Shown: positions 14,404 to 64,000, counted from the stretch's first letter. The stretch: DNA of 64,000 nt from a virus (IMGVR_UViG_3300021086_000004:26732-90731), one strand, 5' to 3'. Notes: a model not told the origin generated them from the letters alone. Numbers and translations: made by a program.

Positions 14404-14876
14404 GTCAGGTCGGCCGGGTCGACGCCTTCGATGATGTACGTGACGACGGTGCCCGTTGTCGAGACCGGCGCGTCGAGACCGAGTAGCCGCGCCTCGCGTT
14501 CGTCGAGGGCCTTGAGCCGGTCGACGGCGCGGAGGATGGGGGCGTCGTCGAGTAGCGGGTTGCCGTCGGGGCCGTGGATGATCTCGCCGTTGTTGACGGT
14601 ATAGTGGAATGCTTCGAGTACGCCGATGACGGCTTTGCGTTGCATGTCGATGGAGGCGAGTTGCTTCTCGCGGTACTGGTCGAGGGAGAGGGCGAGGTGT
14701 TCGCGTCGCTGGTCGAGGGCGCGGCGCATGTCGGTGATGGCGGATTGGCGTGAGTCGTAGCCGAGTGTGTCGGCTATTTCTTGCCAGGTGATGCCGCGGT
14801 TGCGGAGGCGGATGACTTCTTCGCGGCGGGCGGTGATGTCTGACGGTGGCGGGTCTTGTGGGGTGGCACCTGTCAC
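14400..14876 (-). CDS. terS: Terminase small subunit (HTH)
   Basis: RREEVIRLRNRGITWQEIADTLGY HTH; ERRARLLGLDAP-type C-terminus (EREARLLGLDAP); ATGA-coupled to terL. Confidence 0.8.
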   Translation of the reverse strand: MTGATPQDPPPSDITARREEVIRLRNRGITWQEIADTLGYDSRQSAITDMRRALDQRREHLALSLDQYREKQLASIDMQRKAVIGVLEAFHYTVNNGEIIHGPDGNPLLDDAPILRAVDRLKALDEREARLLGLDAPVSTTGTVVTYIIEGVDPADLT

Positions 14877-15190
14877 TGGTCGCAGCCAGCTTTGGCGGCT
14901 TCCCTGGACCACTGCACGACCCAGGCGTAGTGCTGCGTTTCGGTGGATCCTGCGGATCCATTCATGTCCTTGCGGAATAACCCGAGCCGTATGCCCTCGG
15001 CTATGTCGTGCCGTACCTGCTTGAAGAATGCGTGGCCGAGTTCTTCGGTGAACACGCCGCTGAGGATCAGCCGCCTGCATAGCAGGCGCGAAAATGAATC
15101 GACTGAGAAGGTGCTCTCGTCCGCAGACCGACGGACCGGCGTGAAGGGGATGGGTCCGATAGCGCAGTCGCCTGTTGGCTGGCTAGTCAC
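14873..15190 (-). CDS. Hypothetical protein, more AT-rich than flanks
   Basis: GTGA overlaps on both sides. Confidence 0.5.
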   Translation of the reverse strand: MTSQPTGDCAIGPIPFTPVRRSADESTFSVDSFSRLLCRRLILSGVFTEELGHAFFKQVRHDIAEGIRLGLFRKDMNGSAGSTETQHYAWVVQWSREAAKAGCDQ

Positions 15191-19576: not shown

Positions 19577-19647
19577 GGCTTGCCGTCCTGGTCGGCCGGC
19601 TCGTCGTCGTCCCAGTCGTCCTCGTACCCGCCGTCCGGCTCGGTCAC
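19573..19647 (-). CDS. 24-aa acidic peptide
   Basis: MTEPDGGYEDDWDDDEPADQDGKP; GTGA overlaps on both sides. Confidence 0.45.
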   Translation of the reverse strand: MTEPDGGYEDDWDDDEPADQDGKP

Positions 19648-21113
19648 GGCACCGCCTCCCACAGCCGGGTCCGCCAGTCGATGTCGAGCATCTCCCCGGC
19701 GACGGCTGCGGCGAGCGGCGGCGGGACGCAGTTCCCGACCTGGCCGAACCGGGAGGTGCGGTTGCCCTGCCACGGGTAGTCGGCCGGGAAGCCTTGGAGG
19801 ACGCCGGCCTGCGGTACGCCGACGCGGACGGTGTGCTCGTCGTACTGGCGTTGCCCGCCTTCGCGGTCGCGGTGGCCGGGGCCTGCGAGTCTCGGGTCGC
19901 CGCACACGGCGGTGGCGGGGCGTTCGGCAGGCCAATCGTTGCGGTGCTGCCAGCGCATGTCGGAGTGGCCGAATGCGACGGTCATCGCGGGCTGGTCGGG
20001 GGTGCGGGGCCGTGTGCGGTCGTTGACCTTGGCCCGGCCGGATGGGACCAGTTCCCATCCGGCCGGGCCAAGGTCGGACTCCAACTGCCACGACCAACTG
20101 CGGCCCTGCCCGGACACGGTCGGGGCGGGACCGGCCATGTCCCGACGTTGGTAGTCGGCGGTGCCGCCGGAGACTTGGTTGGTCTGCAGGGTCCATCCGG
20201 TGCTGTACGAGGTCTTCCCGGCGCCGTACGCCCAGCGTGGGCCGCGGTCGCCGCAGACAGTGCGGCTGGGCCGGTCAGCATCGATGGCCAGCGCGTCGGC
20301 CATGGACACCCACGGCAGCAGCCCGCGGTCGGCGGGGTGGACGGCACGTTCCCGGGCCGGCTCGACGAACAGCCCATCTGCGGCCGGCTCATCCGCGCGG
20401 CGGGCGGGGACGTACCGGGCGTGCGACGGTGCCGGCAGCCGGGCCGGCCGGCCGTCGTTCCGTGCGGCGAGGAACGCCCGCAACCGGGTCTGCGGGACGC
20501 CGAAGCATTCGGAGCTGAGCAGGCCGGCGGTGGCGGACCAGCCTGCGCGGCGCAGGCATCGGGCGTACTCGGCCCACAGCGGCAGCGCGGCGGGAACCTG
20601 CTCGCAGGCGAGCCACCGCAGCCCGGCGATGCCTTCGGCCCACCGGGCGGGTTCGAGAACGAGCGCCGCCTGCGCGGCGTCCGCGCGGGCGGCTGCTTCG
20701 ACCCGTGCCCGCGGCCACTGCTTGGCAGGTGGGCGGGTCTCGTTGCGGGCCTGCTGCGCCGCCAGGGCGGCGGGGTACACGTCGGCGCGGACCTGGCCGC
20801 GTACGTCCTCCCCGGCGAGCATTGGCGCGATGGCCGCGGTCAGGGTGTCCATGACGGCCAGTCCGAGCCGCTGCCCGGCGTTGGAGAACAGGGGGCAGGG
20901 TGGGGACATGACCGCGCCGTCTACGCGTCCGGCGAGGTGCGCGAGCGGGAACGCGGCGACGTCGGCCTGTACCCGGACGTGGCCTGCGGCTTGAGCGGTG
21001 CGGCAGGCGTCCCGGTCGAGATCGACACCGACCGCCGCCGTGTGGCCGAGCATCGCCATGCCCTGCGACCCGCCGCCAGGGCCGGCGAACCCTTCCAGGA
21101 CGAGACGGGTCAC
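19644..21113 (-). CDS. DNA (cytosine-5) methyltransferase
   Basis: Motif I FAGPGG, IV SPPC, VI EQV, VIII VPQTRLRAF, IX LQGFP, X GQVGNCVPP. Confidence 0.93.
   Translation of the reverse strand: MTRLVLEGFAGPGGGSQGMAMLGHTAAVGVDLDRDACRTAQAAGHVRVQADVAAFPLAHLAGRVDGAVMSPPCPLFSNAGQRLGLAVMDTLTAAIAPMLAGEDVRGQVRADVYPAALAAQQARNETRPPAKQWPRARVEAAARADAAQAALVLEPARWAEGIAGLRWLACEQVPAALPLWAEYARCLRRAGWSATAGLLSSECFGVPQTRLRAFLAARNDGRPARLPAPSHARYVPARRADEPAADGLFVEPARERAVHPADRGLLPWVSMADALAIDADRPSRTVCGDRGPRWAYGAGKTSYSTGWTLQTNQVSGGTADYQRRDMAGPAPTVSGQGRSWSWQLESDLGPAGWELVPSGRAKVNDRTRPRTPDQPAMTVAFGHSDMRWQHRNDWPAERPATAVCGDPRLAGPGHRDREGGQRQYDEHTVRVGVPQAGVLQGFPADYPWQGNRTSRFGQVGNCVPPPLAAAVAGEMLDIDWRTRLWEAVP
20025..20075. repeat. 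Perfect 23-bp inverted repeat with 5-nt loop inside the methyltransferase
   Basis: GACCTTGGCCCGGCCGGATGGGA-CCAGT-TCCCATCCGGCCGGGCCAAGGTC. Confidence 0.95.
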
Positions 21114-21499
21114 GGCGTGCTCCCCGCGCAGTACCGGCATGTGTCGGGCTGGCAGGTGCCGTCCATGTGGGACTGCTGGTCGGGGGTGCCGCCCCACGCG
21201 TTCCCCCGTGGCATGACGGACCGGCGGGCCACGAACCCGGGGTCGTCGGGCGGGTTGTCTGCGGCCACGTCGAGCAGGGCGGGCGTGTCGATGTCGGGCG
21301 CTGGGTCATCTCCCATCGCGGCGCGGATCACGGCGGGGTCGACGCTGAGGAACCCCAACGGCCGGCCTGTGCCGTCGCCGTGCAGGGCGACCTCGACCGC
21401 GACGTCGACCGCGGCCCGGTACGCCTCGGCCATGCCCAGGTTCAGTTCGGCCTGCAAGCCAGCGTGAGCCAGGTCCGCGTGGTCGTCCGGGCCGGTCAC
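21110..21499 (-). CDS. Hypothetical protein
   Basis: GTGA-coupled; C-terminal Cys cluster. Confidence 0.6.
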   Translation of the reverse strand: MTGPDDHADLAHAGLQAELNLGMAEAYRAAVDVAVEVALHGDGTGRPLGFLSVDPAVIRAAMGDDPAPDIDTPALLDVAADNPPDDPGFVARRSVMPRGNAWGGTPDQQSHMDGTCQPDTCRYCAGSTP

Positions 21500-27451: not shown

Positions 27452-27645
27452 GGCCGGCCCTCTGTGGCGGTAAGGAGTTCCGACAGGGGGCATTGCAGGG
27501 CGTCGGCGAGCGTCCACAGCCGGTCCATCGACGGCGAGTAGGCGCCGTTCTCGACCCGGCTGATCGACTGCCGGTCGCAACCGCCGAACGCGTGCCTGCG
27601 TCGGAGTTCGGCGTCGGTGCAGTTCCGGGGCACGGTCGTGCTCAC
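27448..27645 (-). CDS. XRE-family HTH, apparently internally deleted
   Basis: CDRQSISRVENGAYSPSMDRLWTLADAL is an XRE C-terminal half; helix 2 appears missing. Confidence 0.5.
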   Translation of the reverse strand: MSTTVPRNCTDAELRRRHAFGGCDRQSISRVENGAYSPSMDRLWTLADALQCPLSELLTATEGRP

Positions 27646-28172
27646 CCGGACCACGGCCTCGGCCGCTCGTCGCCACGTACGTACAGCGGGTGCCTAGGTG
27701 CGCCGTCCTTCGTCGTCCCGAGGCAGGCCAGGACTTGCCCGGTCGTTTCCCGGACCATCGCGCACAGCACGGCATCGCGGCCGTGCGCCCGGACGGCCCT
27801 GTCGGCGCCCCATGCGGCGATCACCGGTCCGCCTGCCGCGGCGGCGAGGTGCCGCCGGATCACGGCGTCGTTGTCCGGGCCGACCGGGTCAGGATGGCCG
27901 TCGAGGGCGCGCGGGTCGGTCGAGCGGAGCGCGAACGTGTTCAGCACGGTCAGCCCGCCCGTACCCCATTGCCGGGCGAAGGTGAGGCAGCGGCGGATTG
28001 TCGGGTCCTCCACGAACGCGTCCGCGGTGGAAGGGTTGAGCATGACGAACACGGCCGGCGGCGTATCGGCCCAGCGGCGGGTGAGGGCGTACCGGTAGGC
28101 CCGGTCGGGTGAGAATTCGGCGGTGGCCCCGCCGATCAGGGCGTCGTCGCGGTCGACCACGAGGCCGGTCAC
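27642..28172 (-). CDS. DUF1643 family protein
   Basis: YRYALTRRW, FVMLNPSTAD..DPTIRRC, NTFALRSTDP, PRHPLY. Confidence 0.92.
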   Translation of the reverse strand: MTGLVVDRDDALIGGATAEFSPDRAYRYALTRRWADTPPAVFVMLNPSTADAFVEDPTIRRCLTFARQWGTGGLTVLNTFALRSTDPRALDGHPDPVGPDNDAVIRRHLAAAAGGPVIAAWGADRAVRAHGRDAVLCAMVRETTGQVLACLGTTKDGAPRHPLYVRGDERPRPWSG

Positions 28173-28495
28173 GGCCGGGCCTCCCGTCCTACCTGCATCG
28201 CCTTGGTCCCCGTGGCGGGGTCGTCCCGGTAGTGGCACGTGTCGCCGTCCTGGCACGGGCACGCCGGGTCGGAGCCGGCGCACGGCTGGCGTGCTGCCTT
28301 CGCTGTGCGTCGCAGCGCTGCCAGTTGCGAACCCCTCGGCCCGAGACCCAGGCGCCCATACGCGGCCAGTACCGATGCGACGAACAGCATCTGCTCGCGG
28401 GTCGGCTCCCCGTACCGCAACTGCCACTGCACGTCGCCGGGGTCACCCGGGTCGGGCCAGGTGGTGCCGTCGTCCAGCCTGAGGTGACTGCTCAC
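28169..28495 (-). CDS. Hypothetical protein
   Basis: Coupled; C-terminal CPCQDGDTCHY. Confidence 0.6.
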   Translation of the reverse strand: MSSHLRLDDGTTWPDPGDPGDVQWQLRYGEPTREQMLFVASVLAAYGRLGLGPRGSQLAALRRTAKAARQPCAGSDPACPCQDGDTCHYRDDPATGTKAMQVGREARP

Positions 28496-45150: not shown

Positions 45151-45342
45151 GTGACACGGCAACTGCCGGCTGAACCCCGGACGACTCGGATCACGGTGCG
45201 GCTGACCGAGGCCGAGCGTGGCCGCGCCGGGGCTGTGCGAGCCGTGGAAGGCGGAGACGAAGTCGACGCACTCCGGCTGCTCCTCCGCCTCGGCTGGGAC
45301 GCCTGGACCGCCACGCAGGGCGGCGCGGAAGGCCGGCCGTGA
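45151..45342 (+). CDS. Ribbon-helix-helix-like protein
   Basis: TTRITVRLTEAE..DALRLLLRLG; GTGA-coupled to dam. Confidence 0.65.
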   Translation: MTRQLPAEPRTTRITVRLTEAERGRAGAVRAVEGGDEVDALRLLLRLGWDAWTATQGGAEGRP

Positions 45343-46175
45343 CTGCCGAGGCGACCCCGCCGATGCCCTACTTCGGCGGGAAGACCACTCTCGCGCCCAG
45401 GATCGCCGCGCTGTTCCCCAGTCATGAGCACTACGTCGAGCCCTACTGCGGATCACTCGCCGTCCTGCTCGCCAAGCCCCGATCGCCGATGGAGACAGTC
45501 AACGACCTCGACGGCGACCTCATGACGTTCTGGCGGGTCCTCCGCGAACAGCCTGCCGACCTCGTCCGCGTGTGCGCGCTGACCCCGCATTCCCGCGCCG
45601 AGCACCAGGCCGCGTACGACCGCGGCAGCGACTTGGGCGACCTGGAACGGGCCCGGCGCGTGTGGGTGCAGCTCACCCAGGGCCGGGCTGGCAGCCGGAA
45701 ACGCACCGGGTGGCGGCACTACGTGAACCCGGTCGGCTCGTCCATCGGGATGCCGGACTACCTCGACGGGTACGTGGGGCGGATGCTCCCGGCTGCTGAG
45801 CGTCTCGCCGGGATCAGCCTGGAGTCCATGCCTGCGCTCGACCTGGTGACGAAGTACGGCGCCGAGCCCAGGGTGCTGCTATACGTCGACCCGCCCTACC
45901 TGGGGTCGACACGGAACTCCGGTGGCTATGTAGTGGAGATGGCCGGCGAGGGCGACCACCGGACGCTTGCGGCAGCGCTGCGGGCATGTAGGGCGGCGGT
46001 GGTGCTGTCGGGGTACCCGTCGGACCTGTACGACCGGGACTTGTACGCGGGTTGGGACCGGGTGGCGTTCAAGGCCGGGACGGGACAGTCGCACGTGTGG
46101 GAGAACCGCACGGAGGTGCTGTGGTCGAACCGGCCGCTCGGCGCGCCGCACCTGTTCTCGGAAGCGGTCTCCTGA
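45339..46175 (+). CDS. DNA adenine methyltransferase (Dam/D12 class)
   Basis: PYFGGK, YVEPYCGSLAV, VNDLDG, YVDPPY, RTEVLWSN. Confidence 0.95.
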   Translation: MTAEATPPMPYFGGKTTLAPRIAALFPSHEHYVEPYCGSLAVLLAKPRSPMETVNDLDGDLMTFWRVLREQPADLVRVCALTPHSRAEHQAAYDRGSDLGDLERARRVWVQLTQGRAGSRKRTGWRHYVNPVGSSIGMPDYLDGYVGRMLPAAERLAGISLESMPALDLVTKYGAEPRVLLYVDPPYLGSTRNSGGYVVEMAGEGDHRTLAAALRACRAAVVLSGYPSDLYDRDLYAGWDRVAFKAGTGQSHVWENRTEVLWSNRPLGAPHLFSEAVS

Positions 46176-47826: not shown

Positions 47827-48056
47827 CGGGGTTGCCCGTACTGGACCCCGTCGCTCTGCCCGGCGATCCAGTCGAGGCAGGCCGGGCAGTTGATCGTCCC
47901 GCCACACAGCCACACGGGCTGGCCAGCGCACTGGGCATGCCAGGACCAAGTGTCGAGGCACTGGCGGCCGCGGTGGATGAGGTACGGGTCGTACTCGGCG
48001 AACGGTAGGCCGGTGCCGGTGAGTTCATGGCCGGTCACGTCGATGGCGTTGTTCAT
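47823..48056 (-). CDS. Cys/His-rich hypothetical protein
   Basis: ATGA-coupled; CPAC. Confidence 0.6.
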   Translation of the reverse strand: MNNAIDVTGHELTGTGLPFAEYDPYLIHRGRQCLDTWSWHAQCAGQPVWLCGGTINCPACLDWIAGQSDGVQYGQPR

Positions 48057-49011
48057 GCCGGGACCACCTCCACGTACTCCGGCGCGTGTTCGATCACGGG
48101 CCGGGCGTGCGGCTTGCACCGCGGGCACGGCCGGGGATGGTCAGGGTCACCGAGCCACCCACCCGCGCAGTCGCACGCGGTACGCGGCGACGGCGGGACG
48201 GCCGGGCGGAACAGGCCGGCGAAGGGCTGCGCGGCGTCCAGCCGGTCGGCCATCTGCTCAAGCCCGGCGTGGACGTCGAGCGTCAGCCAGCCTTCGGCCT
48301 TCGAGGCGGGCGGGGGCATCGGGACGGGCTCGGCCCATCGGCGCCAGGCTGCGATGAGCGCGGGCAGGGTGCCGTCTCCGTGCGCGACGACAACGATCCC
48401 GAGTCCCTTGCCCTGCTCGGCGAGGTAGGCCTGCACGCTGGCCCGGGCGGCGGCCGGGTCGAGGCCGTGAGCGGTCAGGGCTTGGTCGACGCGGTCCGGG
48501 CGTTTGATTTTCTCCTCGTGCGCGCTAGCTAGCTTGCCCTCTTCTTGGTCAATGAACTTCTTGGTAGAGGGTTCTTGGTTGGATTCCCTGCAGGAACCAC
48601 CCGGTTCCCCCGGTACGCCACCCGGTTCCTGCAGGGAACCACCTGCGGTGGGCGGCTCGGGCGGCGCGACCCGGCCGAAGATGAGCCGGTACTCGCTGGT
48701 GACGGACTCCCGGCCGCGCCACCGCAGGATCTTCACCAGCGCGCCGATGCACTCCAGGACGTGGCATGCGCGCATCGCAGTACTGCGACTACAGCCCATC
48801 CGCTTGGCGATGCCGCTGTAGGACAGGGTGATGGATCGGTACTCACCGGCTGCGGTCCGGAAGGTGCCCTGCTGGCCGAGGCACACGTAGGCGTCGACGA
48901 CGTAGCTCTGGGCGACCTTCTCTTGGGGTCGCGCGCGGGCGCCCACTCCCGGATTCGCTGGCGGACCCAGGTGGGCATCATGACGTAGCCGCCGCCGGTC
49001 TCGTCGCTCAC
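48053..49011 (-). pseudogene. Replication initiator-like HTH protein with one-base frameshift near 48919-48928
   Basis: Coupled GTG start gives MSDETGGGYVMMPTWV..ARDP; the HTH (SYSGIAKRMGCSRSTAMRACHVLE) and C-terminal CDCAGGWLGD..PRPC are in the other frame. Confidence 0.6.
48584..48643. repeat. Direct and inverted repeats (iteron-like) inside second rep-like gene
   Basis: TTCCCTGCAGGAACC and its reverse complement GGTTCCTGCAGGGAA flank two CCACCCGGTTCC direct repeats. Confidence 0.65.
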
Positions 49012-49310
49012 AGGGTCCCGTCCCGGAGTTGGGCGAGGTAGCCGGCTGCGTCGAGTTCGGCGGCATAGCCCCGGACGTCCTGCTCGGTCTCGCCGCTGGC
49101 TTCGGCGGCGAGTTCGGCGAAGGTGACGAATCGCCCACCCGGGCGCCCGAGAATGTGCCCGAGGAGACCCTTCGCGGCCCAGCTCAGGTGCGGGTCGCGA
49201 AGCACGCGGTCAGGTAGGGCCGTGCCGTGGCCGTGCGGCGCCGCGCCGCAGTCGATGCCTTCCGGCTCGCCGTCGCCGACGCCGGCTGTGCCGGTGTGGT
49301 TACAATTCAC
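49008..49310 (-). CDS. Stand-alone replication-protein-type HTH domain
   Basis: LRDPHLSWAAKGLLGHILGRP..AELDAAGYL; AAGGAG RBS. Confidence 0.7.
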   Translation of the reverse strand: MNCNHTGTAGVGDGEPEGIDCGAAPHGHGTALPDRVLRDPHLSWAAKGLLGHILGRPGGRFVTFAELAAEASGETEQDVRGYAAELDAAGYLAQLRDGTL

Positions 49311-49750: not shown

Positions 49751-49954
49751 TCAGACGGCCGGGTCGAACTCGCCGGCCTTGACTCCGGCGAGGAACGCGG
49801 TCCATTCGCCTGCGGTGAAGCCGTGGACGGGGCCGGATGGGTCCTTGGAGTCGCGGGTGAGCGCGCCGCCGTCGGGCAGTAACGCCACCTCCACGCAGTT
49901 CGTCGGCTCGCTGAACGTGCTCTTGCGCCAAACTAAGGTGCCTTTGTCGATCAT
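49751..49954 (-). CDS. DUF397 domain protein
   Basis: WRKSTFS..NCVEVA, RDSKDPSGP..F..EWTAFLAGVKAGEF; GAGGAG RBS. Confidence 0.93.
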   Translation of the reverse strand: MIDKGTLVWRKSTFSEPTNCVEVALLPDGGALTRDSKDPSGPVHGFTAGEWTAFLAGVKAGEFDPAV

Positions 49955-50004
49955 GTTCCCCACTCCTCGGATAGTCGATGGGCCTCAGCCTGACAGGCTG
50001 AGGC

Positions 50005-50778
50005 CTAACCGGCGGCCCGTCTCCCGACCGGCATCTCCCGGAAGCGTTCGGACACGACGATGTGCCGATCTCCCGGGAGGACGCTGATCGAGCAGAACAC
50101 GGCCTGGCCGGTAGCGGTGAGGCCGGTGCACATCTCGACTGCAACCGGCTGCCCCGGGTCTAGGTCCAGCAGCTGGGTCTCGCCGGGGTCGGGCATCCGG
50201 ACGTATATCTCGTCCCTCAGCCGCACGGGAGACAGGCCTAGTTCATCGAGCGCGGCTATCACGCCGCCTTCGATCAGCGCCGGTTGCATGATCTCCGATT
50301 CCTCCACGAGATGCCGGGGGTAGTAGGCGTCTGCGATCACGACCGGAGTCTCGCCTGCCGCCAGCACTCGATGCCTGAGGACGGCCAGTTCCCCCGGCGA
50401 TCCCAGGTGCTCGGCCACGTCCGCCGGAGGTTCCGCCAGTACGACATCCACTGTCTGACTCAGCGGGCGGTCAGCCCCTGAACTCTCGGTTAGGAGCCGG
50501 TCGGCCAGGCCGGGGAACACTGGGGCGAATCCCGGCGCACCGCCTGTCTCTACGCGGTAGCGGCGGCGTTCGCGGACGAACGACCCGACGGTTGGCCGCG
50601 TGAAGACGAGCCCTTCCGAGGTCAGCTTTCCGATGGCTTGCCGGACGGTCATTCCGGTCGTGCGCCACTCCGTTAGCAGCGTCTCGTGGGTAGGTAGCCG
50701 GTCGCCCGGCTTGAGTTCGCCGGATCGGATCTTCTTGCGGAGGTTGTCCGCGATTTGAAGGTACTTCGGGGCTGCCAT
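50005..50778 (-). CDS. GntR/HutC-family regulator (KorSA/TraR-like)
   Basis: KYLQIADNLRKKIRSGELKPGDRLP, TVRQAIGKL, UTRA-like C-terminus; divergent from tra operon. Confidence 0.92.
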   Translation of the reverse strand: MAAPKYLQIADNLRKKIRSGELKPGDRLPTHETLLTEWRTTGMTVRQAIGKLTSEGLVFTRPTVGSFVRERRRYRVETGGAPGFAPVFPGLADRLLTESSGADRPLSQTVDVVLAEPPADVAEHLGSPGELAVLRHRVLAAGETPVVIADAYYPRHLVEESEIMQPALIEGGVIAALDELGLSPVRLRDEIYVRMPDPGETQLLDLDPGQPVAVEMCTGLTATGQAVFCSISVLPGDRHIVVSERFREMPVGRRAAG

Positions 50779-50798
50779 GCCCTGGATTCTCCTCGCCC

Positions 50799-50885
50799 AT
50801 GTCCGTCCGTGTCCGGCGATGTCCGTTGCTGTCCCGTTCCGATACTGGCGATACGCTAGCGCATCATGCAAAATTATGACACCCT
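50799..50885. promoter_or_regulatory. Divergent control region between GntR and transfer operon
   Basis: Four TGTCC(G) direct repeats; AT-rich core TGCAAAATTATGACA containing overlapping -10-like boxes on both strands. Confidence 0.45.
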
Positions 50886-50927
50886 CGGCAGGGTTGGTCA
50901 CTGACCGAGACGGCGGACGGGGAAACG

Positions 50928-51176
50928 ATGGCAGCCGGTAACGCGGGAACGCCACTCAGCGGCGCAGAACTCACCGTCGGAGACCTACTCGCCCACGCGC
51001 AAACCGCCATCAACGGCGGCCTCGCATGGGGAGCCCAGGTCAACCCCGACCTCGCCGTCTACGCCGGCAGCCGCACCCACCCCCGGCCCGTCCTGGGTGT
51101 CGACGTCTTCTTCTGGCGCGGCCGGTTCCGGCTGGTCCTGCTCACCGACGCCCCCGACGGCGAGGCCCAGCAGTGA
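50928..51176 (+). CDS. Hypothetical protein
   Basis: First gene of tra operon; GGGGA RBS. Confidence 0.65.
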   Translation: MAAGNAGTPLSGAELTVGDLLAHAQTAINGGLAWGAQVNPDLAVYAGSRTHPRPVLGVDVFFWRGRFRLVLLTDAPDGEAQQ

Positions 51177-51457
51177 CCGGCCCGGCCGGCCCCCGGCGCC
51201 GGACCCGCTCCCGCCGGCAGCACACCCCCATCGACGTCCACGGCCTCCGCGACGCGCTGGCAGCGTTCGCCGCCGACGTCGACAACCCGGCCGGCATCGA
51301 CGGCACCCGCCACGTGTACGTCCGCGGCCCCGACGGCCGGCTCTACCCCCTGACCGGCGTCGTGACCTCCACCCTCTTCGGCCAGCGCATCCTCATCTTG
51401 GACGGCACCGACGTGCCCGGCGAAACCGGCGACGACACGCCCGGCGGTGCGGCGTGA
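51173..51457 (+). CDS. Hypothetical protein
   Basis: GTGA-coupled. Confidence 0.6.
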   Translation: MTGPAGPRRRTRSRRQHTPIDVHGLRDALAAFAADVDNPAGIDGTRHVYVRGPDGRLYPLTGVVTSTLFGQRILILDGTDVPGETGDDTPGGAA

Positions 51458-51651
51458 ACAGGTTCGTCATCGTCCACACCGGCGACCCTGACGCGTGGGA
51501 CATCGCCGAAGACGTCGGAGACGGCCGCAGCTTCGAGGTGCTCTGCCGGGTCGTCGCACCAGGAGATGGCGACCCGGACGCGGTGATCCGCAGGGCGCGG
51601 TTCATCCAGAACGCCCTGACCGCCTACCGCGCTGCGGGGGGTGCGCCGTGA
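51454..51651 (+). CDS. Hypothetical protein
   Basis: GTGA-coupled. Confidence 0.6.
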   Translation: MNRFVIVHTGDPDAWDIAEDVGDGRSFEVLCRVVAPGDGDPDAVIRRARFIQNALTAYRAAGGAP

Positions 51652-52109
51652 ACGGGCAGCCCGGAGTGTTCGCCGCCGTCTTCGCGGCCCTGTACGCGGC
51701 GCACATGGTCGGCGACCACTGGGTGCAGTCGGGCTGGCAGGCCGCGAACAAGCACCGCCGCGACTGGACCGGTCGGTGGGCCTGCGCCGGGCACGTCGCG
51801 TCCCTCGCCTTAACGAAGCTGGCGTTCGTCATCGTTGCCGCCTCGGTGTGTGACCTGCGACTGAACCAGTGGCGGCTCGTCGCCGGCATTGCCGTGGACG
51901 CCGTGTCGCACTACTGGGCGGACCGCCGGTTCACCCTCGCGGGGCTGTGCGCCCGGCTCGGGAAGGCGCAGTTCTACGCGCTCGGCGCGCCACGCCCCGG
52001 ACGGGACGACAACCCGTCGCTCGGCACAGGCGCGTACGCCCTGGATCAGTCCTGGCACATCGGCTGGCTGTTCGTCACGGCACTGATCGTCGCGGCAGGT
52101 GCGGCATGA
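51648..52109 (+). CDS. DUF3307-family membrane protein
   Basis: LYAAHMVGDHWVQ, SHYWADRR, DDNPSLGTGAYALDQSWH. Confidence 0.8.
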   Translation: MNGQPGVFAAVFAALYAAHMVGDHWVQSGWQAANKHRRDWTGRWACAGHVASLALTKLAFVIVAASVCDLRLNQWRLVAGIAVDAVSHYWADRRFTLAGLCARLGKAQFYALGAPRPGRDDNPSLGTGAYALDQSWHIGWLFVTALIVAAGAA

Positions 52110-52702
52110 GTCGCCGCCGGCCGGCGCTGCTCACCCGCCGCGGACGCACCCGGATCCGCCACCGCGCCTACGCCCTGGCCGCCGCGGCGGGCGGCATCGG
52201 CTGGGCGTGGCACACCCACCCCGGCGCCGTCGTCGCCCTCGGCGCCCTTGCCGCAGCCGTCGCCGCCTACCGGCTACGCCACCGGATCGCACCCCTCATC
52301 GCCGGCCGCCGGCAGCCCACCCCCGAGGCCGACACCCGACCCACCGGGCTCTACCAGCACTGGTTCGCCGAATCCCACATCCGCCCATGGATCGACGCCG
52401 GATGCCCCCGCTCCTGGTTCGGCTACACCGGCATCTCCGTCGCCTACGCCCTCCGCTGCGAACAGCACGCCGAGAAAGCCTGGTGGTGGCCGCTGGTCGA
52501 CGCGAACCTGTCGACCCTCCAACTTTGGAACACCCGCGACGAGGCCGAGGCCGCCGAGCTGGCGACGATCGCCGAGTACTGCGGCGTCGGGAACGAGATC
52601 GGCAACCCCCGGTTCCGGGAGCAGGCCCAGTTGCGGGCCGAGTTGATGGCGTACGCGGCGCGGGTCCGCGCGCAGCAGTTGACCTATGCGAGGACCGGAT
52701 GA
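52106..52702 (+). CDS. Membrane-anchored GIY-YIG nuclease
   Basis: Two N-terminal hydrophobic segments; TGLY..YTGIS..RCEQHAEKAWW..TRDEAEAAE..N. Confidence 0.7.
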   Translation: MSRRRPALLTRRGRTRIRHRAYALAAAAGGIGWAWHTHPGAVVALGALAAAVAAYRLRHRIAPLIAGRRQPTPEADTRPTGLYQHWFAESHIRPWIDAGCPRSWFGYTGISVAYALRCEQHAEKAWWWPLVDANLSTLQLWNTRDEAEAAELATIAEYCGVGNEIGNPRFREQAQLRAELMAYAARVRAQQLTYARTG

Positions 52703-52899
52703 CCGCCAACGTCGTGGCCGAGCTCGACGCCGCCGTCAAATGGCTCCGCTGGGCCGATGACCTCGCCATCCACGCAACCGGCCAGCCAGCCGGGACCGCA
52801 CGGTGCCGGGCGCAGCTGTCCGCCGTCGCCGGATGGCTCCGACGGCATCCCGACGTCGCCACCGAGATCGGCCTCAACATGCCCGGAGGAACCGCATGA
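52699..52899 (+). CDS. Hypothetical protein
   Basis: ATGA-coupled. Confidence 0.6.
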   Translation: MTANVVAELDAAVKWLRWADDLAIHATGQPAGTARCRAQLSAVAGWLRRHPDVATEIGLNMPGGTA

Positions 52900-53099
52900 C
52901 CATCACCCTGCCGCTGATCGTCCTGGCCGGAGCCGCCGTGTTCGTCCTCTGGCGGTACTCGCCGGTAGGACCGGTCGCGATCGTGGTGATCGGCGTGTTC
53001 GGGTTCCTCCTGGCCGGGACGTCCGCGGCGCCTCCGATCCACCGCGCCCTGGCCTCCCTGGTCGGGCTCACCCAGTCGGCCTCGCAGAAGGCGAAGTAG
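52896..53099 (+). CDS. Spd-like small membrane protein
   Basis: 2 TM; GFLLAGTSAAPPI motif typical of AICE small membrane proteins. Confidence 0.75.
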   Translation: MTITLPLIVLAGAAVFVLWRYSPVGPVAIVVIGVFGFLLAGTSAAPPIHRALASLVGLTQSASQKAK

Positions 53100-53101
53100 C
53101 C

Positions 53102-55111
53102 ATGACGTCCCCTCCGCCGATCGTGCCCGCGCCGCCGCCGGTAGCGGCGGCTCCCCCTGTCACGCCGGCCGACGTGAAGCCGGCGAAGACCCCGCCCGGG
53201 CCGAAGACCGCAGCCGCTCCGCCGCCGCTGATCCCCGCGCACCGCCGCCGGCAGGCCGCTCTCGTTGGCGGTGCGGGTACCGCGGCCGGATCGACCGCTG
53301 CGGCGTTGGGTGCGGCGCAGGCCGGGATCGCACCCGGGTTCGGCGTGCTGGGAGCGCTCGGCCTGGCCGCCGGGGGCGCTGCCGGGGTGGTTGCGGTCCG
53401 CCGCCGCATGCACCGCCCCGTTACCGCCGCAGCCGCGCCGAAGGCCAAGCCGGGCCTGCGTGCCCGCGCAACAGCCCGCCGTGATGTGGCGAAGGAACGG
53501 CGGGGGAAGCTCACCGAACGGATCCGCGGCGCCCTGAACCAGCGCCGCGGGTCGAAGTCACCCGCCGGACCGGAAGCCCACTCCCGAGGGCGCCGGTCCG
53601 GCGGGGCCGGCCCAAGCCGCCGACGGATGGGCCGGCAGGCACCCGGGGTCCAGCCCCGGTCCCCGGGTGCCCCCACGCCGAAGCGCGCCGGCCGGCTGGC
53701 CCGTGCGATGCCGACGCGGGCCGGTAAGGCCGCGAGGGCTCAGCGGCGCGCGGAACGGGCGGGCGGCAGGGGCCAGCCGGCGAACTCGCCCACCGGAGGC
53801 CGGACGCCTAGGACGACCGGCAGCCCTGGCCGCCGGTCGAGGCTGGGCCGGGCGTGGGATCGGCGGCCGGGTGGTGCGGGCCGCGCCGCACGGGCAGCCA
53901 CCGGGGCCGCGAGCGGCAGTGGCGGCGGGTCGAGCAAGGCGCAGCGGAAGGCCGCGCGGAAGGCTCAGTCCGCGGGTGCGGGCACCACCCGGGCTCCGTC
54001 CGGCACTGGACGGCGCGCCCGCCGCGCCGCCCGGAAAGCCGCCCGGAACGCACCGCCGACCGTCGCCGCGCCACCCGCCGGTAAGGCGAAGAGCGGCAAG
54101 AAGACCCGGGCCGCGAAGACGACCAAGCCGGCAGCCCCAACTCCGACCGGAGCCGGGGCGAAGGCCGCACCCGTCGCCGCCGGCGCGGTCCCCCGGACGG
54201 TGTGGTCCAGCCGGCGCCGTGACCGGCGGAACCTAGGCGTCCCCGCGGCGCCGGTTCAGGCCGGCAAGGGGCGGTGGGCGCGGCTCAAGGCGCGGCTGAA
54301 CCCGGTCGTCGCATCCGGCTCGACCAAGCACGTCCCGTGGGAAGAGCCACCCCCGCCGAAAGGCGGAGGCGTCGGACCGGTCTCGCCGAAGGCCGGACCC
54401 AAGCCGCCCGGTGGGCCGCCGGGCGGCTCGAAGGAGAAGCCCCGGGTCCTGACCGACGACCGGGTCCTCGCCACCCGCGGCGCCCGGACCCGACGACAGG
54501 ACTTGGCCGACTCGCAGTGGGGACCGGCGGGTCTCCGCGATGACCCGCCGCAGACCGACGCGTCGTGGGCCGCCGGGTTCGCCCCCGGCCCGGAGCCGCT
54601 GGCCGAAGACGCACGAACCGCCGCCCGTGACCGCTGGCAGCGCCGCACCAGCCAAGGAGCCACCGTGCCCGGAAACAAGGATCCCCTCGGATTCCACAAC
54701 GCCCGCAGAGGCGCCGACGGCGAGATCCACGACCGCGCTCCCGCGACCGGCATGGCACGACCGGCCGCGCCATGGGGCACCGACGACCCGTACAACGGCC
54801 CGTCCCGCGGTGGCGGCACGGGTGAGATCGCCGACATGCGCACCGACATGCCCCGGTTCGAGGCCACCGCCGCGGACGCCGCCGAAGACCTCGCAGCTGA
54901 CTTCCGACGCCGCGCCGCAGAGGTCAGCGACGGCACCCCCTCGTCACAGGCCGTGAAAGACGCATGGGAGGCGCTCGCCGCACAGCAGTCCGCCGTCGCG
55001 CAGGCCACCGCGGAACTCGCTGGCATGTCGCAGCGGGTCGACGCGGTAGGCCACGACGCCGGGGACCGGTACGGCCACGACCCGAACTTCGGCAAGTGGG
55101 CGGGCCGCTGA
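53102..55111 (+). CDS. Large Arg/Lys/Ala/Pro-rich transfer-region protein with TM and helical C-terminus
   Basis: Hydrophobic segment near N-terminus, long basic low-complexity middle, helical acidic C-terminal domain. Confidence 0.65.
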   Translation: MTSPPPIVPAPPPVAAAPPVTPADVKPAKTPPGPKTAAAPPPLIPAHRRRQAALVGGAGTAAGSTAAALGAAQAGIAPGFGVLGALGLAAGGAAGVVAVRRRMHRPVTAAAAPKAKPGLRARATARRDVAKERRGKLTERIRGALNQRRGSKSPAGPEAHSRGRRSGGAGPSRRRMGRQAPGVQPRSPGAPTPKRAGRLARAMPTRAGKAARAQRRAERAGGRGQPANSPTGGRTPRTTGSPGRRSRLGRAWDRRPGGAGRAARAATGAASGSGGGSSKAQRKAARKAQSAGAGTTRAPSGTGRRARRAARKAARNAPPTVAAPPAGKAKSGKKTRAAKTTKPAAPTPTGAGAKAAPVAAGAVPRTVWSSRRRDRRNLGVPAAPVQAGKGRWARLKARLNPVVASGSTKHVPWEEPPPPKGGGVGPVSPKAGPKPPGGPPGGSKEKPRVLTDDRVLATRGARTRRQDLADSQWGPAGLRDDPPQTDASWAAGFAPGPEPLAEDARTAARDRWQRRTSQGATVPGNKDPLGFHNARRGADGEIHDRAPATGMARPAAPWGTDDPYNGPSRGGGTGEIADMRTDMPRFEATAADAAEDLAADFRRRAAEVSDGTPSSQAVKDAWEALAAQQSAVAQATAELAGMSQRVDAVGHDAGDRYGHDPNFGKWAGR

Positions 55112-55113
55112 CC

Positions 55114-55890
55114 ATGACGGGCAGGCTCGTTGTCGACGGCCCGGACAGGGTGGGCGCGGTCGCGTACACATTCATCGTGTTCGCGGTCAGCATCGCCGTG
55201 TCCGGGTTCGGGCAGCCGGCCATGTTCGGCCCCGTCCCGTGGGGGTGGGCCGTCGCCGTATATGGCACGTTGGGGGTGATCCTCGCCTGGGGGTTCCCCG
55301 TCCGCGTGTACGCCACCGGAGGCGGCGCCACCGACTGGACGTTCCCCCTGCCGGTCCGGGCGTGGACGGCGGCGGCCATGGTGGTCGCGTTCTGGGTCGC
55401 CGCCGGGGCGTGGGTCGGGTATGGCTGGGTCCACGGGTGGGGGTCGGGCCGGTACTGGATGTCCTGGCTGGGCGGATTCGCGGCGACTGCCACCGCGGCG
55501 GCGACGTGGGCTCCCCCGACGAACCTCGGTCTGCCTATGCAGCCGTACGCGGCCGATCTGGCCGCAGCCGGGCTAGTCCCGGCCGCGGACCCGTGGGCGC
55601 AGATCGTCGCCGCGGCCACCAAGGGTCGCGTCGCGGGGGTGACTACCCGGCGGGTCGACCGGTGGGAATCCGGCTGCGGCTACTCCGCGTACCTCACCCT
55701 CCCCGGTGACGGCTCCACCGACGAGACGCTACAGCCGTACCAGGCGGCGATCGCCGCCGTCCTAGACGTCCCCCGCGGCGGCGGCGTGACCGTCTTCCCC
55801 GACCCCGACGGCGGGGCGCGGGCGATCCGCGTCGACGTCCTCGAAACCGACGCGATGGCCTCGGCCATCGACTACCCCGGGCTGGACTGA
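55114..55890 (+). CDS. TraB N-terminal membrane part (separate ORF)
   Basis: About 4 TM segments, then AIAAVLDVPRGGGV..RAIRVDVLETD, the TraB pre-motor region; TGATG overlap. Confidence 0.7.
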   Translation: MTGRLVVDGPDRVGAVAYTFIVFAVSIAVSGFGQPAMFGPVPWGWAVAVYGTLGVILAWGFPVRVYATGGGATDWTFPLPVRAWTAAAMVVAFWVAAGAWVGYGWVHGWGSGRYWMSWLGGFAATATAAATWAPPTNLGLPMQPYAADLAAAGLVPAADPWAQIVAAATKGRVAGVTTRRVDRWESGCGYSAYLTLPGDGSTDETLQPYQAAIAAVLDVPRGGGVTVFPDPDGGARAIRVDVLETDAMASAIDYPGLD

Positions 55891-57233
55891 TGGAGCCGCT
55901 GACGATCAACGGGCCGATCCCGTTCGGCCGGCACCGCGACGGCACCGTCGCCGCCGCCCAGATGCGGTTCGCCTGCGTGGCGATCGTCGGCGAGCCGAAC
56001 TCCGGGAAGACGATCCTTGAGCACAACCTGTGCTGCGGGCTGATCCGATGCCCCGACGCACTGGTCTGGATGGTCGACCTGTCCCGCGGTGGCCTCGCGA
56101 ACGCCTACCTGAACCCGCTGGTCGACGGCGACGTGACGACGCCGCCGGTCGACTGGATCGCCACCGACCCGGGTGAGGCGCATGCGATGACGCAGGCCGC
56201 GTGCGACATCATCGGCCGCCGACGGGCGGTGTACCGGCAGTGGATGAAGCAGCGGCGGACCGACAAGCTCCCCCTCACCCACGACCTGCCGGCGATCTAC
56301 ATCCTGATCGACGAGGGGAAGAAGGTCACCGGCGCGCGGGCGGACCTGAAACTCCTCGCCAAGATCATCCAGGTTGCGGACGAGGGCCGGGCGATGGGCG
56401 TCCGCCTGGTCATCACCGGCCTCCGCGGCACCTCCGAGGTGATCCCGTCGGAGTTGATGGCGGACATCGGCTGCCGCATCGGCATGTCGGTGGCGTCCGC
56501 GGCGGAGGCGAACTACCTGTTCGGGTGGAACCACCGGCCGAACCCACGGGACACCCCGTACCCGGGGTGCGGGCTGTGGCGGCACGGCCTCGGTGGGCCG
56601 CCAACCCCGTTCCGCTCCTACGACCTGTCCGATCCGACGCGGATCGCGCGGCTCGCGGTGGCGTGTGAGCCGTGGCGGCCCACCCTGGATGAGCCGTCCC
56701 TGGACGGGCTCGCCCCGGAGCTGCGGGAGTGGTACCTGAGCCGGTGGGAACGGGCCGCGGAGAGCCTCGGTGAGCCCGCGGGCTCAGGCGGCCCGGCGGC
56801 GCAGGTGAGCCATCCCAGTGGCCGCGTGGTAAGCCAGTCGCCGAGCCGGCCTATGAGCGCGTTGGACCGGCTCGCTGCCATGCCGTCGCTGGACCAGGCG
56901 CTCAACCGGGTCCGCCGCGCGCGGACGGCTGAGGGGCTCACCGGGGAGCGGCTGGACGAGCGCTGGGCCGACCTCGCCGCGCAGCTCGGCGACGACCGCG
57001 CGGCCGGCGGCGAGGGCTGGGCCGACGACGGCGTCGCGACCGAGCCCCGGGCTCGGATGCTGCAACTGGTCGACGCGGCCGGCGGCAACGGCGTGTCCGG
57101 TCCGAAGCTCCGCGAGGCGCTCGCCGCCGAAGGTCACGATGTGCCGATGACGACCCTGTACCGGTGGCTGAAGGCCGACGCGGTCGACGGCGGCTACAGC
57201 GTCTGGCACTCCAGGAAGGACATCGCGCCGTGA
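55890..57233 (+). CDS. traB: TraB / FtsK-SpoIIIE DNA translocase motor plus C-terminal winged helix
   Basis: PIPFGRHRDG, Walker A GEPNSGKT, Walker B IYILIDEG, EGRAMGVRL, C-terminal wHTH ending TTLYRWL. Confidence 0.88.
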   Translation: MEPLTINGPIPFGRHRDGTVAAAQMRFACVAIVGEPNSGKTILEHNLCCGLIRCPDALVWMVDLSRGGLANAYLNPLVDGDVTTPPVDWIATDPGEAHAMTQAACDIIGRRRAVYRQWMKQRRTDKLPLTHDLPAIYILIDEGKKVTGARADLKLLAKIIQVADEGRAMGVRLVITGLRGTSEVIPSELMADIGCRIGMSVASAAEANYLFGWNHRPNPRDTPYPGCGLWRHGLGGPPTPFRSYDLSDPTRIARLAVACEPWRPTLDEPSLDGLAPELREWYLSRWERAAESLGEPAGSGGPAAQVSHPSGRVVSQSPSRPMSALDRLAAMPSLDQALNRVRRARTAEGLTGERLDERWADLAAQLGDDRAAGGEGWADDGVATEPRARMLQLVDAAGGNGVSGPKLREALAAEGHDVPMTTLYRWLKADAVDGGYSVWHSRKDIAP

Positions 57234-58153
57234 TGGAAAGTCCCACCGGCGATTCCCCGCCCCCCGCGCCGGCTCTGAGCGTGCCGCTGCCCGCCGGGCG
57301 CGGTAATACCCACGGCAATTCCCGCCGGCCGATGGTGTGGTGGGGGGTGCTGGCGGTGGCCGCGTGCGGGGTTGTGGCGACCGCTCACGGCCTGTTCGCG
57401 GTCGCGGTGGTATCCGGGGTGGGTGCGCCGGTGGCGTGCCTGTACGTGCCGATCACGGACGGGCTGGCGCTGGTGGCGTACGCGTCGACCGGCCGGCTGA
57501 CGGGATGGGACCGCGGGTACGCGTGGCTGATCGTGGTGGTCGCGGCCGGGCTGTCGGGGCTGGCGCAGGCGGTGAACCTCGCCGGGCTGGGCGAGGTGGA
57601 CTGGCGGCTGCGGTTCGGGGTGGGGTACTGGCCGGCGGTGGCGGTGGCGGTGGCGGCTCACCTGCTGTGGCTCGTGGGCCGTCCCGGGCCGGTGCGAGCC
57701 CTGGTCGCCGAGCCCGTTGCGAGCCCGTCTAGCGAGCTCGGCGAGCCGGCGACAGAGCCCGGCGGTGAGCCCGCGCCGAGCCCGGCCAGAGAGCCCGAGC
57801 GAGCCCACCCGGTGAGCCCCAGCGAGCCGACCAGCGAGCCGCCATGCGAGCCCTCGGCGAGCCCGCCAGGTGAGCCCCACCGGGCGCCTCTTGCGAGCCC
57901 TGCCGAGCCGGCCAGCGAGCCCCCTGGCGAGCCCGCCGCGATGGGCTCGGTGAGCCCGATCCGGCGGCAGCGAGCCCGCGGGAAGCGAGCCCCCGACCCG
58001 GCTCTTCTGGACTGCGACTGCGGGCTCGCCAGGTGCCCGGGGCGGGTGTCGAAGGCGGCCCGGACGCGGCACCGCGCGGAGGTCAAGGAAGCCGCCGAAC
58101 TGGCGGGCCGTGCCCAGTCGAACGGGCACCGCGAGCCGGCGGGCGCACGGTGA
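57230..58153 (+). CDS. DUF2637 / Spd-like membrane protein with Pro/Glu-rich linker
   Basis: 4 TM (ATAHGLFAVA..YVPITDGLALVAY..AAGLSGLAQA..WPAVAVAVAAHL); GTGA overlap with traB. Confidence 0.75.
   Translation: MMESPTGDSPPPAPALSVPLPAGRGNTHGNSRRPMVWWGVLAVAACGVVATAHGLFAVAVVSGVGAPVACLYVPITDGLALVAYASTGRLTGWDRGYAWLIVVVAAGLSGLAQAVNLAGLGEVDWRLRFGVGYWPAVAVAVAAHLLWLVGRPGPVRALVAEPVASPSSELGEPATEPGGEPAPSPAREPERAHPVSPSEPTSEPPCEPSASPPGEPHRAPLASPAEPASEPPGEPAAMGSVSPIRRQRARGKRAPDPALLDCDCGLARCPGRVSKAARTRHRAEVKEAAELAGRAQSNGHREPAGAR
57696..57991 (+). repeat. Array of 22 direct GAGCC repeats (mostly GCGAGCC(C)), putative clt/TRS
   Basis: Spacing mostly 10-14 bp; occurs in all three reading frames (12/4/6). Confidence 0.85.
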
Positions 58154-58323
58154 TCGCCGCCGTGGGTGCCGCGCTGGCCGCGTTAGGTGTCCTGGCGGCT
58201 GCGTGCGGCCTGGGCCGTGCGCGGGAGTTGCGGGGCGAGCGTGAGCGGGCGTCGCAGCGTGCCGGGCGGGTGGCGTTGGCGGGGCCGGGGTGGTCGGGGC
58301 GGTTCGGCCCCGACCGGCCCTGA
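58150..58323 (+). CDS. Small membrane-anchored protein
   Basis: GTGA-coupled; N-terminal TM. Confidence 0.55.
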   Translation: MIAAVGAALAALGVLAAACGLGRARELRGERERASQRAGRVALAGPGWSGRFGPDRP

Positions 58324-58324: not shown

Positions 58325-58507
58325 CTACCCGCAGTAGATGCAGCCATTGGGGTTCGCGCCCTTACAGGCGCCGCATCCCCGGGTCGCGGAGGTGCGGCGG
58401 GCGATGGCCGCAGCGAAGTCCTCGCCGAAGTACTGGGCTGCCAGGTCGAGCGCCTTGCCCTCGTCGCCGTAGATGGTGATCGCCTCGGACTCGGTGTTCT
58501 TGGCCAT
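58325..58507 (-). CDS. 60-aa protein with C-terminal CxxC..CxxC
   Basis: GGAAGGA RBS; own consensus promoter. Confidence 0.7.
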   Translation of the reverse strand: MAKNTESEAITIYGDEGKALDLAAQYFGEDFAAAIARRTSATRGCGACKGANPNGCIYCG

Positions 58508-58547
58508 CTTCTCGGTTCCTTCCGTTGCGCTCTCCCTGACAAGACAA

Positions 58548-63607: not shown

Positions 63608-63909
63608 TGGACGGCGTGGCGCTGACGGGCGCGGTGATCTTCCTGGCCGGGACGGTGTTCGGAGCCGGCCTCCGCAGCCTCCCGCCGCGACGACGCCAGC
63701 CCGCCGCAGTCCGGCCGGAGTGCCAGTGCGGTCATCCCCGTGCACTCCACGACCGGGCCACCGATCAATGCCACTCGCTCGCCTACGTCAGGGGCACGAC
63801 CAGCAAGTCGGCCCATCACGCCCCGTGCCGGTGCCGGCAGTACGTCGGCCCGGAGCCGCTACCGTCGGTGTTCTCGACTGGCATCGAGCTACCCCGAGGG
63901 GAGGCCTGA
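63598..63909 (+). CDS. Membrane-anchored Cys/His-rich protein
   Basis: N-terminal TM; CQCGH..H..C..CRCRQY. Confidence 0.65.
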   Translation: MDVMDGVALTGAVIFLAGTVFGAGLRSLPPRRRQPAAVRPECQCGHPRALHDRATDQCHSLAYVRGTTSKSAHHAPCRCRQYVGPEPLPSVFSTGIELPRGEA

Positions 63910-63910
63910 C

Positions 63911-64000
63911 ATGGGTACACGGAGATTCGTCCGGCTCGACCACCGCGTCGCGACCACGGTCCTGGCTGATGTGACACCCGCCGCGGCCGTCGGCCACCGC
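63911..64000 (+). CDS. Hypothetical protein, 5' part (runs off window)
   Basis: GGAGG RBS, ATG 63911. Confidence 0.5.
   Translation, partial: MGTRRFVRLDHRVATTVLADVTPAAAVGHR

Follow-up and report, generated by a model that had tools for sequence, protein, structure and literature searches.

A probable TraB-type DNA-transfer and spreading module native to a lineage of tailed phages

Introduction

In mycelial actinomycetes, one FtsK-like pump carries double-stranded DNA from cell to cell. The element pZL12, or phage ZL12, was reportedly characterised as a Streptomyces plasmid-phage by Zhong et al. in 2010 (J Bacteriol 192:3747). According to two other reports, pZL12/phiZL12 is an established Streptomyces plasmid-phage (PMC3583192, PMC4487206), and the first of these states that conjugal transfer of pZL12 needs the major tra gene together with two of its neighbours (PMC3583192). 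Here, we examine a stretch of virus DNA, IMGVR_UViG_3300021086_000004:26732-90731, which comprises the last 64,000 bases of a 90,731-base IMG/VR record (“the window”; all coordinates follow its numbering unless marked “record”), and in particular an 8.6-kb block at 49751-58323. Our analysis suggests that this block is probably a native and functional Streptomyces-type TraB module for DNA transfer and spreading, belonging to a tailed phage with a circular map.

TraB-based systems have been described in detail for plasmids. The tra-spd locus of pSVH1 consists of TraR, SpdB3-Spd79-SpdB2, TraB and the 8-bp repeats of clt (PMC4447253). The same source describes translational coupling for plasmid spd operons, defines clt in plasmids by short direct repeats (8 bp) that the C-terminus of TraB recognises, attributes intramycelial spreading to TraB together with the Spd proteins, and raises the possibility that phage DNA is spread with the help of Spd homologues encoded by actinophages (PMC4447253). 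Integrative and conjugative elements of actinomycetes (AICEs), a second class of carriers, are defined by an integrase (PF00589 or PF07508) and a Rep protein (RepSA, RepAM PF12307 or Prim-Pol PF09250) next to Tra (PMC3218068). A phage with a module of this type is not new in kind, since both the idea and one experimental case (pZL12) exist and FtsK-like genes have already been annotated in actinophages. The initial annotation of the block, made from the sequence alone, overrated its novelty in this respect, as pZL12/phiZL12 is a known plasmid-phage with a homologous GntR-divergent tra locus. What is new here is the unrelated phage backbone, the conserved split of TraB, a common candidate recognition word, and the apparent lack of integration and partition genes.

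The locus compared with described systems

pZL12 (GQ919031.1) is a 90,435-base circular element with tailed-phage virion genes, a size close to the ~90 kb of the record studied here. In it, the GntR gene pZL12.80 points away from an operon that encodes small and membrane proteins, a 766-residue protein and the FtsK-like pZL12.71c, and the block shows a similar arrangement, with a regulator that is 27.5% identical to the product of pZL12.80 and a motor that is 31% identical to that of pZL12.71c. When compared with pZL12 by tblastn, the C-terminal ~100 residues of the N-terminal piece of TraB (TraB-N; residues 202-307 of its open reading frame, or ORF) and the first 268 residues of the motor fall on adjoining parts of pZL12.71c. 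The two elements differ in several respects. TraB is one 725-residue polypeptide in pZL12, whereas it is split in the record; pZL12 has ParA/ParB and a tyrosine recombinase, none of which was found in the record; and outside the tra locus, virion and replication genes included, only two methylases show detectable similarity between the elements. With virion genes and a homologous tra locus on one replicon, the record appears to be a plasmid-phage of the pZL12 kind. If so, the combination of tra and virion genes also occurs on a backbone unrelated to that of pZL12, and is old and conserved in that lineage.

The resemblance to pSVH1 covers a GntR-type regulator, a translationally coupled operon of membrane “spread” proteins, an FtsK-like TraB whose C-terminal domain, a modelled winged helix in the record, is a candidate for DNA recognition, short repeats as the (here putative) recognition locus, and a protein with four transmembrane (TM) segments, predicted in the record, like SpdB2. 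However, pSVH1 is a 12-kb rolling-circle plasmid without virion genes, and its repeat word is 8 bp long, compared with a core of (T)GAGCC(C) in the record, where TraB is split; the Spd likeness is one of position and architecture. The module appears to hold the full set of a TraB system, namely a regulator, Spd-like proteins, a motor with a winged helix and candidate clt repeats.

Among isolated actinophages, P1312 (Thermobifida) and Hiyaa, Keanu, Galactica and Spocter (Streptomyces) carry FtsK-like proteins of the same family, phrog_31069, at 28-35% identity, and P1312 also has the closest large terminase (TerL) of any isolated phage, at 54%. Unlike in the record, their FtsK-like proteins are fused (~680-700 residues), no GntR-divergent operon of 12 genes is annotated in them, and P1312 has a serine integrase nearby. 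Two circular Streptomyces plasmids in PLSDB, NZ_CP109332.1 and NZ_CP108279.1, have a TerL that is 51% identical, with a traB-like gene ~3 kb away; NZ_CP109332.1 also has ParAB and a type III polyketide synthase, as does pZL12. AICEs such as pSAM2 share the single FtsK-type Tra, the GntR-family regulator and Spd-like genes, but their defining integrase and Rep modules were not found in the record, where the carrier is a 90-kb phage genome.

A module native to the phage lineage

The record is a stand-alone IMG/VR virus contig of 90,731 bases with a CheckV completeness of 100% and no host-like flanks, which does not fit its earlier description as a prophage. Capsid, protease, portal and terminase genes, which the initial annotation had placed on the same element as the module, were all recognised with PHROGs: those for the major head protein (2948-4399), the maturation protease (4312-5922), the portal (6201-8426) and TerL (13006-14961) all lie on the minus strand. 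PHROGs also recognised a RecT/exonuclease pair, an RNA ligase and a DNA methylase, while the tail and lysis genes are located in the 26.7 kb that precede the window. No tRNA genes were found in the window.

IMG/VR labels the record linear. Its first 143 bases (record 1-143) recur at 63858-64000, the first 126 nt exactly and the remainder with mismatches at positions 127, 133 and 137, and these near-identical ends suggest a circle whose closure was imperfect, or else differences between strains. Across the end junction, small plus-strand genes are followed by a minus-strand lysis cassette, an order collinear with uninterrupted contigs of relatives. Based on the end repeat and this collinearity, the genome map is most likely a circle of ~90.6 kb that was closed imperfectly by the assembler.

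The relatives compared were G001 (from IMG/VR), the metagenome contigs L015, L016 and L018 (used as DNA), and a 69-kb contig from the Joint Genome Institute (JGI), used without its DNA. G001, a circular genome of 70,437 bases with a terminal repeat of 127 nt, carries the complete module in the corresponding position. Its head and packaging block is collinear with 2948-14961 (minus strand) at 46-56% identity, a range given by TerL, the major head protein and the portal, and the TraB motor is 55% identical; the collinearity extends more widely to other structural, recombination and lysis proteins. The neighbourhood of the module is also kept in the three metagenome contigs and the JGI contig. 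Every close relative examined, at least five in all, has the module at ~50% amino-acid identity, about as far diverged as the structural genes are, and in all of them it lies between a replication-initiator-like gene and early small genes that are followed by the lysis cassette. Since it occupies the same position in diverged relatives, the module appears to belong to the phage lineage and to have diverged along with the phage. Other genomes in which TerL and the head protein are syntenic with traB, which the initial annotation had called for, do exist: G001 is of this kind, and the two Streptomyces plasmids and P1312 also combine related TerL and traB-like genes, a few kb apart in the plasmids.

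The whole 90.7-kb record yielded no tyrosine or serine recombinase, RepAM or Prim-Pol; RepSA was not searched, and the RepAM (PF12307) negative is weak, its control having matched nowhere. Neither recombinase family was found in G001, and no att-like direct repeats were found bracketing the module. The earlier statement that integrase, RepAM and att repeats are missing next to the module therefore extends to the rest of the record, and neither of the findings expected for an inserted element, a set of integrase, rep and att sites around the module or its absence from close relatives, came to light. An independent AICE inserted in the phage is largely ruled out by the conservation of the module at the same place in relatives and by the failure to find an integrase, RepAM, Prim-Pol or att repeats. 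Megablast of the module against plasmids and phages gave no match, because the relatives are too diverged for DNA searches.

The TraB motor, its split and the repeat arrays

The TraB motor (55890-57233, plus strand, 447 residues) is an FtsK-type ATPase with both Walker A and Walker B motifs. It matches the FtsK/SpoIIIE-like family phrog_31069 at 1.1e-57 and, at up to 7e-43, plasmid genes that bear the annotation DNA translocase FtsK. Its AlphaFold2 model has a pLDDT of 81, and the best Foldseek matches are FtsK (6t8b/2ius), EccC and TcpA, a conjugation coupling protein, at E ~1e-13. The ATPase occupies residues 1-290 and is followed by a variable linker and a C-terminal winged helix (~386-441), with three helices and a hairpin in the last ~60 residues that are modelled at pLDDT ~90 and conserved in the homologue alignment. 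This winged helix may be the reader of the clt repeats. By its scores against curated models, given below, the motor appears to be a divergent member of the superfamily and not a curated TraB equivalog.

The membrane part of TraB is not in the same polypeptide as the motor. TraB-N (55114-55890, plus strand, 258 residues), recognised by tblastn to pZL12.71c and by its AlphaFold2 model, has three TM segments and a soluble C-terminal domain, and its stop is overlapped by the start of the motor by 1 nt. The closest 18 homologue clusters of the motor have 419-482 residues and start at the same conserved motif, whereas more distant homologues (40% identity) are fused proteins of 663-685 residues with the membrane part in the same chain. 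In five of five relatives, TraB-N is again encoded apart from the motor; its ORF lies immediately upstream, with a 4-nt overlap in G001 and at 1-4 nt from the motor ORF in L015, L016 and L018. Because it recurs in the 18 homologue clusters and in four other loci, the split is real and old, and a frameshift or sequencing error as its cause is ruled out. The soluble domain of TraB-N is modelled at pLDDT ~88, and its best Foldseek matches, which are weak and serve as a lead only, are FtsK motor chains (E 0.02-0.08). This domain fits the FtsK alpha subdomain, in which case the break would fall between alpha and beta, and a conserved split between alpha and motor would make a natural two-piece pump for dissecting assembly.

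Two arrays of a short word lie in and just after the motor gene. Array 1 (56650-56940), found like array 2 by k-mer clustering, falls in the part of traB that encodes the linker and contains 12 GAGCC (7 on the plus and 5 on the minus strand), mostly as TGAGCC; it ranks about fourth among the short-word clusters of the record. Array 2 (57694-57993), which occupies the tail of the gene following traB, contains 18 GAGCCC (22 GAGCC), all on the plus strand, and is the densest 6-/7-mer cluster of the whole record, with 17-19 copies per 300 nt as against 6-8 in ten triplet shuffles. Its copies fall in all three codon phases (8/4/6). The linker cluster of (T)GAGCC(C) is shared by five relatives, despite a linker protein sequence that is unalignable. 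It counts 14 copies, on both strands, in G001, 11 in L018, 9 in L015 and 8 in L016, and ranks first or second in each of these four. The gene after traB also has an array in L015, L016 and L018, but with other words (GTGAGC, GGAACC and AACCGG). We consider the arrays in the traB linker and the next gene to be candidate clt sites. By the same k-mer scan, neither pZL12 nor NZ_CP109332.1 showed a dense short-repeat array close to its tra gene. Directly after its FtsK-like gene, the Thermobifida phage P1312 has GACCGG/CCGGTC 16 and 13 times in ~900 nt (8676-9550 in P1312 numbering), possibly a candidate clt in an isolated plaque-forming phage.

The regulator and its divergent operon

The regulator gene (50005-50778, minus strand) encodes a GntR helix-turn-helix (Pfam, 1.1e-16) and a UTRA domain (1.3e-17), that is, a protein of the GntR/HutC type in the position of TraR/KorA. 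Its ORF spans 50005-50955, with the real start placed at ~50778 by homology to the L015 gene, and the protein is 41% identical to the G001 copy. Between the regulator and the operon lies a divergent control region (50779-50927), recognised by its repeats, a palindrome and a promoter-like site: TGTCC occurs four times at a 10-nt phase (50800-50834), the 16-nt palindrome GATACGCTAGCGCATC is found at 50850-50865, and a promoter-like site on the minus strand (50901-50873) faces the regulator gene. The palindrome is identical in L015, and L018 has a CTAG-centred counterpart at the same place. The layout appears to be that of the TraR/KorA type, with a GntR helix-turn-helix and UTRA protein encoded divergently from the tra operon and a candidate operator between them.

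The operon itself comprises ~12 genes on the plus strand, from 50928 to 58153 or 58323. Nearly all of its junctions are an ATGA/GTGA 4-nt overlap, a 1-nt overlap or a 2-nt gap, and TM segments are predicted in five of the products. These junction overlaps, together with Pfam, PHROGs and Foldseek, support the earlier description of a GntR gene divergent from a coupled operon with a DUF3307 gene and an FtsK/TraB-type translocase.

Proposed working and alternative explanations

If the module works as its plasmid counterparts do, the GntR/HutC regulator would bind the palindrome and repeats of the divergent promoter region and keep the operon off, in the logic of Kil-Kor systems. Derepression would then yield the small membrane proteins, the large Ala/Pro-rich membrane protein, the 4-TM protein (all Spd-like), and the two-piece TraB, of which the first piece would be a membrane anchor with an FtsK-alpha-like domain and the second a soluble FtsK-type motor ending in the winged helix. 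The (T)GAGCC(C) arrays within traB and immediately behind it would act as clt and be read by the winged helix, and the motor would pump the circular double-stranded phage genome, perhaps kept in a plasmid-like, episomal state, across the hyphal envelope and septal cross-walls. In this way, the phage could spread without virions as well as with them. Comparison with the systems above supports this proposed spread both as virions and by TraB transfer. If true, owning the pump would give a phage a second infection route, one that depends neither on receptors nor on particle stability and might sidestep some surface-level defences. One could go further and suppose that the two-piece TraB and the intragenic GAGCC arrays are the main means of persistence, with an episome pumped across cross-walls, into spores and into neighbouring mycelia, so that virion-free spread is routine; we regard this extension as speculative and doubtful.

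Several observations weigh against a transfer function. The motor scores 26.2 bits (2.7e-6) against the NCBIfam model NF041214 plasmid_TraB, where the cut-off is 800, and 11.3 bits against Pfam FtsK_SpoIIIE (PF01580), where the cut-off is 24. The Spd-like proteins belong to no detectable family, the name “Spd” being given by position and TM content only. The arrays fall in coding DNA for low-complexity peptides, for which some contribution at the protein level is conceivable. No ParA (AAA_31 model), ParB or integrase was found in the record, by a search with one ParA and one ParB model for partition, so that a non-lytic circular form would have no evident means to persist. Finally, plaque-forming phages, Hiyaa and P1312 among them, have related FtsK-like genes too, and the roles that have been published for phage FtsK-like genes, suggested without functional study, are in replication or host development (PMC11536984, PMC13587820).

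In one alternative, the FtsK-like motor would work within the lytic cycle or in taking over the host, through resolution or segregation of the genome, host segregation or sporulation septation, and not the transfer of DNA between cells. In PHROGs, the category of the motor family is “moron, auxiliary metabolic gene and host takeover”, and Keanu, Galactica and Spocter join Hiyaa and P1312 as plaque-forming phages with relatives of the motor. However, such a role would leave unexplained why the motor gene shares an operon with those of seven or more membrane proteins and stands under a GntR regulator, just as plasmid tra-spd loci do, and why the motor has a membrane anchor. The motor is also homologous to the pZL12 gene required for conjugal transfer, and the cis arrays beside its gene are what one would expect if the phage marked its own DNA for recognition. 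We therefore consider a lytic or takeover role unlikely.

Another possibility is that the module mainly serves to segregate or pass on a putative episomal prophage without ParAB, acting among intramycelial compartments and prespores and not in mating between mycelia. The missing ParA, ParB and integrase would agree with this, given that pZL12 and NZ_CP109332.1 have ParAB, as would the known part of TraB and Spd proteins in intramycelial spreading (PMC4447253). Yet ParA and ParB were each searched with a single model. Moreover, plasmid TraB machinery performs both inter- and intramycelial transfer, which makes this a difference of emphasis, and we think it rather improbable that inheritance is the main role. 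It is very improbable that the block came into the phage independently, as a piece of an AICE or plasmid that is now a passenger or decaying remnant: its GC content and gene types do resemble those of AICE or plasmid tra regions, and it is a discrete divergent unit, but each of the 12 reading frames is open and coupled, searches for an integrase, RepAM, Prim-Pol and att repeats found none, and at least five relatives have it in the same place at ~50% amino-acid identity, with a divergence like that of the structural genes. A native transfer and spreading module is the probable explanation.

Other genes of the module and its neighbours

At an E-value of 0.01, Pfam assigns no family to 7 of the 10 module ORFs tested, the motor among them. 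The operon begins with a gene for 82 residues (50928-51176), called from the frame plot of GC at third codon positions, and a small gene matched by size and position lies at the corresponding place in G001, L015 and L018. Two small coupled ORFs with GTGA overlaps follow (51173-51457 and 51454-51651), indicated by the frame plot and start/stop overlaps; their coding status is uncertain, and a search for homologues of the two found none. The DUF3307-type membrane protein (51648-52109, one TM segment) matches PF11750 at 5.2e-5, a marginal score (23.7 bits against a cut-off of 23), and more clearly the “membrane protein” family phrog_2470 at 1e-17; it is 56% identical to its L015 counterpart. The next gene (52106-52702) encodes a conserved 198-residue protein without a Pfam, NCBIfam or PHROG match, which is 37-43% identical to the products of same-place genes in G001, L015 and L018. 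A conserved block common to all of these recalls GIY-YIG nucleases, by eye only.

Two further small coupled genes (52699-52899 and 52896-53099), the second for a protein with two TM segments by TM scan, are 64% and 75% identical to L015 genes. They precede the gene for the 669-residue Ala/Pro/Arg-rich protein (53102-55111), which has one TM segment, is Spd-like by position, has no match in NCBIfam or PHROGs, and is 56% identical to the product of a 700-residue L015 gene. After TraB-N and the motor comes the 4-TM protein (57230-58153), with a low-complexity tail and an architecture, judged by TM scan, like that of SpdB2 or DUF2637 proteins; it is 29-56% identical to the products of same-place genes in L015, L018 and G001. 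This is the gene that the initial annotation called DUF2637-like. A protein with four predicted TM segments is indeed encoded after traB, but the DUF2637 hidden Markov model (PF10935) gives no match even at E-values up to 10, and the family name is left with a lead from language-model neighbours, whose top clusters are all DUF2637 (score 0.87). The operon may end with a gene for 57 residues (58150-58323, plus strand, like the genes before it), with one TM segment and a GTGA overlap, although this is uncertain, as the frame plot is not decisive.

On the regulator side, a small DUF397 protein (PF04149, 6.9e-21) is encoded at 49751-49963 on the minus strand. A DUF397 gene always stands beside the GntR gene in the relatives, with one to three copies at the same place. 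Beyond the other end of the module, a minus-strand gene for ~60 residues (58327-58509) encodes four Cys near its C-terminus and is preceded by the best promoter-like site of the region (TTGACA-17-TAAAGT, 58576-58548); L015 has a minus-strand gene for 66 residues at this place.

Replication, host and other features of the record

Directly left of the module lies the replication-initiator-like gene (48053-49138, minus strand, 361 residues), which matches phrog_270 “replication initiation protein” at 3.9e-5 and HTH_36 weakly; a faint HTH_36 gene is found at the same place in the JGI contig. Inside this gene there is a perfect 15-nt inverted repeat (48584-48638). An iteron-like array at 10023-10166 consists of a 19-20-nt word, CCCCAACTGGGGGAGCAAC, present three times in direct and one to two times in inverted orientation, and sits within a gene for 333 residues (9631-10632) between terL and the portal gene. 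The product of the latter has no family match, and its C-terminus is 70% identical to the product of a G001 gene; the C-terminal part of the replication-initiator-like gene resembles gene 9631-10632, and both match the same G001 region. The replication-initiator-like gene and the iteron-like array may hint at replication of the plasmid or lambda type.

A regulator with HTH_31 and DUF5753 domains (record 413-1519, Pfam 5e-52) is encoded near the start of the record, and together with the DUF397 genes it belongs to types typical of Streptomyces WhiJ/BldB-like loci. These genes give a hint of the host group, and along with the GC content of ~72% and the phage relatives they suggest a Streptomyces-like host at the level of genus. 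Pattern scanning of species-representative genomes with the motor alignment found no relative.

Elsewhere, the record encodes DNA methyltransferases of the cytosine type (19644-21197) and the D12 adenine type (45339-46175), which are the two genes outside tra that have clear counterparts in pZL12, a DUF1643 protein (27642-28427), and a 558-residue protein with a TROVE (Ro60-type) domain (record 9282-10958, Pfam 2.5e-16).

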